A stretch of DNA of 64,000 nt, taken from the NCBI RefSeq assembly GCF_013315695.1, contig NZ_CP054353.1; one strand, written 5' to 3'. The stretch comes from Escherichia coli (GTDB lineage Bacteria > Pseudomonadota > Gammaproteobacteria > Enterobacterales > Enterobacteriaceae). The position numbers were made by a program, and so were the translations under genes. Position 1 is the stretch's first letter. Each line of letters opens with the position of its first letter. Below the pieces are notes generated by a model, which did not search any database, was not told the origin of the DNA, and saw nothing but the letters and a program-made list of their open reading frames with translations. Shown here piece by piece: positions 23,151 through 23,453 of the stretch.

Positions 23151-23453
23151 TTATCGCCAATGTGCAGGAATAATTAAGTCAAACGATTTTGCTGCATATT
23201 CAAGCATTTTTATTATTTCCCTGTGTCGTTCCTGGTCGAAAGACTGTCCATTTTTTCTACACTCTATAATCCCTTGTAATTCTTTTAGGTTAAACATATC
23301 AAGAAGATATAAATTTTTCCAGGTTGGTTGCCCGAAGAGGTTATAGACTGTTTCCGTAGCATCTCGTTCACTTGCTAATCTTTTCTCTCCTTCTATTCTT
23401 TCAAAAAATATTTCAGCTGTTTCTTTATCATCATAAGTATTTAATAATTTCAT
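23151..23453 (-). CDS. hypothetical protein (100 aa)
   Basis: AT-rich ORF convergent on the 3' end of the three-gene operon; no recognisable motifs. Confidence 0.35.
   Translation of the reverse strand: MKLLNTYDDKETAEIFFERIEGEKRLASERDATETVYNLFGQPTWKNLYLLDMFNLKELQGIIECRKNGQSFDQERHREIIKMLEYAAKSFDLIIPAHWR

Follow-up and report, generated by a model that had tools for sequence, protein, structure and literature searches.

A small unannotated gene lies tail-to-tail with restriction-type cassettes of many kinds at the edge of mobile-element backbones

The 64,000-nucleotide stretch of DNA analyzed here (the window) belongs to an Escherichia coli chromosome and contains the right end of a leuX-type island, beside nanS, nanM, nanC, and fim. 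The cargo operon of interest here consists of three genes on the plus strand, encoding a DrmD-like SNF2 helicase (13705..16596, 963 aa), a type III-like Mod methyltransferase (16602..19721, 1039 aa), and, at the 3' end, a Res-like helicase/nuclease (19724..23104, 1126 aa; REase_III in PADLOC). Facing this trio, tail-to-tail with the Res gene, is a gene on the minus strand (23151..23453) with an ATG start, 100 codons, and a TAA stop, which we refer to as orf100; the ORF listing and its translation agree with the original prediction on position, strand, and length. The RefSeq entry for orf100 is WP_000771541.1, a hypothetical protein, and the product is a hydrophilic, cytoplasmic protein of 12 kDa with a pI of 5.4.

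The gene had been predicted to end 47 bp past the Res stop codon; the two genes are indeed convergent, but the spacer between the Res stop (23104) and the orf100 stop is 46 nt. This spacer contains a hairpin (23116..23148), an inverted repeat with a perfect 15-bp stem and a 3-nt loop, located between the convergent stops, with a folding energy of −29.8 kcal/mol (z = −7.7). The hairpin was scored as a terminator for the minus strand, i.e. for orf100, and its T tract is weaker on the Res side. The very AT-rich DNA of the original prediction is also present (GC content of 0.23-0.25 over ~23350-23800), although it does not follow the gene as proposed: on the strand of orf100 it lies upstream. This AT-rich leader or promoter region (23454..23760, minus strand), which travels with orf100, includes a promoter-like site (TTTACA-17-TATCGT, 23512-23484) and a ribosome-binding site (AGGGA). 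Rfam and repeat scans of positions 22900-24100 returned nothing beyond the terminator hairpin. In E. coli genomes lacking orf100, similarity to the window starts only at ~23760, indicating that orf100, its leader of ~300 bp, and the trio are parts of a single inserted segment.

Several features of the surrounding DNA deserve mention in their own right. To the left of the trio and co-oriented with it, a CP4-type island backbone (~8985-12602) encodes DUF932, an annotated antirestriction protein, RadC/JAB, DUF987, a YeeU/CbtA toxin-antitoxin pair, and DUF5983. Of a helix-turn-helix regulator gene, no more than a fragment is present immediately before the SNF2 gene (~13041-13154; L001 4242-4355). 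A plasmid with a related trio (L076) carries an intact 81-aa helix-turn-helix gene (2467-2712) that overlaps the start of the SNF2 gene, and from these sequences the trio's own 5' regulator appears to have decayed in the window strain. Within the Mod gene (16602-19721), the GC content falls to 0.27-0.33 at ~17800-19300, making its center far more AT-rich than the rest of the operon, and three loci (L002, L077, and L078) encode SNF2 and Res proteins 99% identical to those of the window together with Mod proteins only 49-71% identical. Such mosaicism suggests, at the sequence level, that the target-recognition region is swapped and hence that specificity changes. We weighed the name ARMADA for the trio but did not adopt it; no DUF1998 domain was detected in Res. 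On the other side, the minus strand upstream of orf100 carries a gene for a phosphorothioated-DNA-binding (type IV) restriction endonuclease (23765-24186) that is frameshifted and truncated. Strains THO-010 and E24377A (L075 10816-11688 and L159 18799-19671) have an intact copy of 290 aa, and thousands of E. coli genomes without orf100 contain an allele with ~90% identity. A unit composed of orf100 and this endonuclease gene was considered and rejected, because ~2,700 further E. coli genomes match the window beyond ~23760 and not in the orf100 part.

A search of 5.8 billion proteins retrieved 260 homologs of orf100 (E ≤ 0.01), spread over the Gammaproteobacteria and nearly all of exactly 100 residues. 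Homologs from Aeromonas, Vibrio, Shewanella, Colwellia, Klebsiella, Yersinia, Salmonella, Serratia, and other genera are 59-68% identical to the window protein, copies from Pseudomonas are 46-55% identical, and one copy each comes from a Burkholderiales metagenome-assembled genome (MAG) and a Massilia plasmid. The family is compact, collapsing to a few dozen representatives at 50% clustering. The possibility, raised in the original prediction, that conservation would be limited to this strain can be discarded, given the copies in Escherichia, Vibrio, Shewanella, Aeromonas, Pseudomonas, the Burkholderiales MAG, and others. Among 32 diverse members, 25 columns are invariant, and the invariant residues include K24-R25-L26-A27-S28-E29-R30-D31, Y37-N38-L39, W45, and P96-x-H98-W99. 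Pairwise dN/dS ratios are 0.04-0.13; orf100 is a real gene under strong purifying selection, far beyond what a chance reading frame would display.

Neither the family nor its fold is annotated. Scans of orf100 against Pfam, NCBIfam, PADLOC, and PHROGs gave no significant match, in agreement with the original prediction that it has no recognizable motif, and a comparison of all 53 aligned members with Pfam at E ≤ 10 gave only scattered sub-threshold matches (COR-A, RRM_1, and SPOR). Structure prediction, which had been proposed as a check, yielded a confident AlphaFold2 model from the 53-sequence alignment (pLDDT 96.4, pTM 0.84), with the predicted topology β1(2-7)-α1(10-19)-β2(24-31)-β3(34-41) followed by helices at 45-50, 56-67, and 74-91. 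A Foldseek search with this model against the PDB and BFVD returned no match below E = 0.1. The sole profile match in the PDB, the FF domain of Prp40 (E = 0.077), was rejected: known FF domains are all-helical, and the matched region is predicted to be β-α-β-β. Two repetitive large proteins (P0166 and P0167) found in the representative search with E ~1e-6 were likewise set aside as spurious, since they share only short repeat matches and no domain with orf100. Modeling of a linker-joined homodimer gave poor and inconsistent results (pLDDT of 74, 57, 57, 57, and 47; pTM 0.54) that do not support a defined dimer. Every source labels the protein as hypothetical, and its accession numbers are not mentioned in searchable papers.

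The original prediction considered orf100 as a possible accessory or regulatory component of the trio and proposed to look for their co-occurrence in other genomes. A scan of one genome per species provided a census of 68 orf100 loci, among which 11 carry the trio with Res tail-to-tail with orf100 (in Shewanella, Arsukibacterium, Thalassolituus, Rheinheimera, Vibrio, Pseudomonas, the Burkholderiales MAG, and others); the remaining 57 have no trio. A reciprocal scan of metagenomes, starting from Res, gave 80 loci, most with the full SNF2-Mod-Res order, of which 68 could be evaluated (at least 400 bp after Res). Here orf100 was present in 10 loci and absent from 58, with a clear dependence on the identity of Res to that of the window: it accompanied all 8 Res genes at 74% or above and only 2 of the 60 at 49-65%. 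No recurrent substitute gene was found in its place in the metagenomic trio loci lacking it. An association with the trio, with orf100 convergent on the Res end, is seen in 11 genomic loci of several genera and in 10 metagenomic loci.

Among complete E. coli genomes, about 198 carry a full orf100 and 194 carry Res, a near one-to-one count that reflects a single inherited locus. In another 177 complete E. coli genomes, all of orf100 beyond nt 123 is missing. In the one of these that was inspected (AR435; L074 9001-9168), an IS66-family element cuts orf100 and the whole trio is gone; this looks like a single IS-mediated deletion that spread clonally. On plasmid L076, whose trio is 65% identical to that of the window, only the last 21 codons of orf100 are left, still abutting the Res stop. 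Nor does orf100 share an operon with SNF2, Mod, and Res, since it is encoded on the other strand and has a promoter-like site and a terminator hairpin of its own. The trio can do without orf100, and orf100 is not confined to the trio.

What lies opposite orf100 elsewhere was established by clustering all ORFs of the 68 loci and annotating the clusters with PADLOC and Pfam. Hma systems (HmaC, HmaB, and HmaA, often with Septu PtuAB nested inside) are found in ~14-16 loci, BREX type 3 (BrxA, a short PglZ, BrxHI, a methylase, and BrxC) in ~11, BREX type 1 (BrxL, PglZ, and PglX) in ~6, and another BREX (BrxHI, PglZ, and BrxC) in ~1. A second SNF2/type III-Mod/Res-like set, sometimes with a UvrD-like gene at its end, occupies ~6 loci; BglII-like remnants occupy ~2; and a type III-like pair with a WYL regulator, a PvuII-type restriction-modification (RM) system, and McrBC each occupy ~1. 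Sixty loci have both an intact orf100 and a neighboring gene downstream of it; orf100 is convergent with that neighbor in 52 of these and co-directional in 8, and the stop-to-stop gaps are mostly 0-60 bp, several being zero or overlapping. The abutting gene encodes a nuclease or restriction protein in several systems (Res, type II restriction endonucleases, and McrC); in BREX and Hma it encodes BrxL, BrxA, or HmaC. Plasmid copies are rare (7 of 72,556) and include pYKAM101, where orf100 converges on the type II RM system XcyI/Pac25I with a gap of 17 bp, and pYTSY4-VIM, where it converges on a BglII-family restriction endonuclease remnant; none was found in the 50,697 phage records searched. 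Restriction-type cargo of at least eight kinds thus has its last gene tail-to-tail with orf100, counting two SNF2/Mod/Res types, BREX-1, BREX-3, another BREX, Hma, type II, type III-like, and McrBC. The other possibility of the original prediction, that the gene could be unrelated, is likewise wrong, since its neighbors are almost always restriction-type defense systems.

Two cargo arrangements are of interest independently of orf100. The Hma operons of L005, L021, L026, L059, and L157 (26227-28233) carry, between HmaA and HmaB, the Septu genes for PtuA (an AAA ATPase) and PtuB (an HNH protein). The hosts include several unrelated ones, E. coli AW1.7 among them, and Septu and Hma appear to form a recurrent composite system. 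In L043 and L048 (cluster order c1-c22-c21-c71), the second SNF2/type III-Mod/Res-like set ends with a UvrD/GajB-like helicase, a gene order recalling the recently named ARMADA II (armABCD); the likeness is one of gene order.

The DNA on the opposite, backbone side of orf100 is equally varied. A P4-type integrase gene adjoins orf100 in ~8 loci; in E. coli A29, L006, L010, L011, L020, and L040 it immediately precedes orf100 on the same strand, the order in A29 being leuX, int, orf100, and cargo. In Pseudomonas, the upstream array encodes DUF932, YqaJ, a Gp3-like recombination directionality factor (RDF), and RadC, with orf100 directly after RadC and co-oriented with DUF932 and YqaJ. E. coli Hma islands show remnants of the integrase and RadC genes before an orf100 that faces Hma; e.g., in strain PSJ-32-1 the order is leuX, integrase remnant, RadC remnant, and orf100 facing Hma. 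In L008 and L017, a TraI_2-family relaxase gene lies 53 bp from orf100 in divergent orientation, and this neighbor is the traI edge of hotspot 5 of SXT/R391 elements. Finally, the window, THO-010, and E24377A have no integrase near the intact orf100; read from the leuX side, they show the trio, then the convergent orf100, and then the phosphorothioate-dependent endonuclease. The plasmids likewise have no integrase nearby. The element on the backbone side is therefore unrelated from case to case, with at least four kinds of backbone.

Pairwise comparisons locate the breakpoints between these parts. Counted from the orf100 ATG, L008 (with BREX-3) and L017 (with the trio) match at 93% identity between −705 and +302, and the match stops at the orf100 stop codon. 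L008 and L013, which both carry BREX-3, are identical only from −6 onward, into the cargo. Taken together, these breakpoints show that orf100 is kept whichever flank is swapped. On a broader scale, orf100 similarity groups track the host clade whatever the cargo: the Pseudomonas copies cluster together across both trio types, Hma, BREX-1, BREX-3, and type II systems, and a common cargo is found only among close relatives. No conserved att- or dif-like DNA site was found beside the stop codon, where many loci have unrelated hairpins. Upstream, a group of Pseudomonas-type copies (L029-L035, L039, L042, L053, and L063) shares the promoter block TGTTCTTTTTTTGCCAGTCAGGCAGAAT between −70 and −25 relative to the ATG, with a conserved −10-like element ~30 nt before the ATG and a GC-rich hairpin ahead of the block; these copies have no obvious Shine-Dalgarno sequence before the ATG.

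We consider the best explanation of these data to be that orf100 is an autonomous cap module placed between a mobile-element backbone and an exchangeable restriction-type cassette, a reading to which we assign a probability of about 0.45. The loci themselves show orf100 to be an autonomous module of a single gene, equipped with a promoter and a terminator and encoding a constrained protein, that persists between the two sides and abuts the 3' end of the cassette. With low confidence, we propose that it might serve restriction-type cargo generically, at the effector end of the operon. Four features, namely the bias in orientation, gaps close to zero, a shared hairpin, and a promoter that looks constitutive, suggest that convergent transcription and the shared terminator could insulate or dampen the 3'-terminal gene of the cassette. 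Similarly, the strong constraint at the protein level, together with polar and aromatic residues that are conserved along the strands of the RNP-like unit, suggests a binding surface: in the model, the conserved polar/aromatic β-sheet face of this β-α-β-β unit may allow the small protein to bind a nucleic acid or a common partner. A possible purpose of such a module would be to lessen self-damage when the cassette enters a naive host.

Among the other explanations, the most serious, although we hold it to be unlikely, is that orf100 is a backbone gene, either an integrase or excision cofactor or an establishment or anti-restriction gene of the leading-type DUF932-YqaJ-RadC array, and that it marks the edge of the cargo slot with no functional tie to the cargo. 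The loci with orf100 directly behind a P4-type integrase (A29 at leuX among them) or behind RadC (Pseudomonas and PSJ-32-1) speak for this explanation, as do the acidity of the protein, the tracking of host clade by the orf100 groups, and the L008/L017 pair, with its common backbone and orf100, its different cargo, and its break at the stop codon. However, orf100 remains intact and under purifying selection where neither an integrase nor RadC is nearby (the window, THO-010, E24377A, and the plasmids), and the L008/L013 pair has orf100 and cargo in common without the upstream DNA. Furthermore, AlpA-type or Gp3-like RDF genes are present separately, and orf100 has no sequence or fold similarity to Xis/AlpA, ArdA, or ArdB/KlcA, its predicted fold not being the winged-helix/MerR-like one of Xis/AlpA-type RDFs.

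Quite improbable, in our opinion, is a passive role, in which orf100 and its flanking signals are a conserved patch of DNA (promoter and terminator) providing homology for cassette exchange as well as insulation, the protein having a minor, island-specific role unrelated to defense. The breakpoints exactly at the orf100 ends and the hairpin between the convergent genes would fit such a patch, and exchange mediated by bet/exo is the mechanism that Wozniak et al. put forward for SXT hotspots (PMC2791158). Nevertheless, DNA identity between clades is only 57-66% with dS saturated, which is too low for efficient homologous recombination, and no DNA motif is conserved after the stop codon. Despite this saturation, the protein is still 46-68% identical, with dN/dS of ~0.1, which indicates that selection acts on the protein. 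Lastly, the suggestion of the original prediction that orf100 is an accessory or regulator dedicated to the SNF2/Mod/Res trio is very improbable, because the convergent trio loci in several genera and the matching E. coli counts (a single inherited locus) are outweighed by the 57 of 68 orf100 loci without the trio and the 58 of 68 trio loci without orf100, as well as by the promoter-like site and terminator that orf100 itself has on the other strand.

The recurrence of a tail-to-tail cap across system types and backbones is not described in searchable papers. Defense systems are known to cluster in exchangeable slots of mobile elements, the edges of which are mostly unstudied, and the orf100 family offers a practical sequence marker for restriction-type cassettes, known and new, in γ-proteobacteria. 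If orf100 modulates its neighbors, BREX, Hma, and classical restriction would have a point of control in common, and there would be a handle on the safe transfer of systems that are toxic in naive hosts. A bolder proposal, which we regard as doubtful, is that orf100 founds an unrecognized class of generic, system-independent accessories for mobile restriction-type immunity, in which a small protein that binds nucleic acid or a partner, its gene tail-to-tail with that of the effector, would act as a safety catch or a 3'-end regulator; in this role, it would let BREX, Hma, and type II, III, and IV cassettes move between hosts and backbones without self-damage.

In architecture, by analogy, orf100 loci most resemble SXT hotspot 5 and other defense hotspots with conserved flanks. 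Hotspot 5 lies between s026 (a WYL regulator gene) and traI and always contains anti-phage cargo (PMC2791158; 10.1101/2020.12.16.423150). It is a fixed slot with precise boundaries through which elements exchange BREX, RM, or DISARM-like cargo, and orf100 sits at the traI edge of such a slot in L008 and L017. The papers on hotspot 5 (PMC2791158; 10.1101/2020.12.16.423150) do not describe orf100, unless possibly as "a gene of unknown function". It is not s026 itself, an identity that was rejected since s026 is a COG2378/WYL protein (PMC2791158). In contrast to the hotspot 5 arrangement, orf100 also occurs on non-SXT backbones, including the leuX island of the window, which adjoins nanS/fim and is not hotspot 5.

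In the immigration control region of E. coli, restriction cassettes vary between conserved flanks and the small symE gene is convergent on hsdS. The likeness to orf100 is that of a small gene tail-to-tail with a restriction operon at a place where systems replace one another; however, orf100 had no SymE family match in the Pfam scan, and it is carried by mobile islands, not by a fixed site of the chromosome. ArdB/KlcA proteins, encoded in the DUF932-RadC arrays of CP4-like islands and in plasmid leading regions, are small and acidic like orf100, which follows RadC in Pseudomonas and PSJ-32-1, but they resemble it in neither sequence nor fold. In addition, the annotated antirestriction gene of the window is already in the array beyond the trio, and orf100 accompanies cargo onto plasmids without a DUF932-RadC array. 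A type II toxin-antitoxin assignment does not fit either, as orf100 is monocistronic, with no conserved small partner gene and no match in PADLOC or Pfam.

With regard to the proposed purpose, the closest analogies are the C proteins of type II RM systems and the BrxR regulators. C proteins are small (~80-100 aa), are encoded beside restriction genes, and are thought to matter for safe establishment. They have, however, an Xre-type helix-turn-helix, and their genes precede the R gene and share its transcript, whereas orf100 is convergent at the 3' end (52 of 60 loci) and has a predicted β-α-β-β unit plus three helices; none of the 53 members matched HTH_3 or a related Pfam family at E ≤ 10, and a separate HTH_3 gene is present in some orf100 loci (cluster c26). 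BrxR and other WYL regulators, located at the 5' end of BREX and other defense operons, share with orf100 the property of being single genes tied to many unrelated systems. Pfam detected no WYL or WCX domain in orf100 members, and WYL genes occur separately in orf100 loci (clusters c14 and c27). The purpose proposed for orf100 would thus resemble that of C proteins and BrxR, but would be exerted from the other end of the operon, the 3' end, and for systems of several types.
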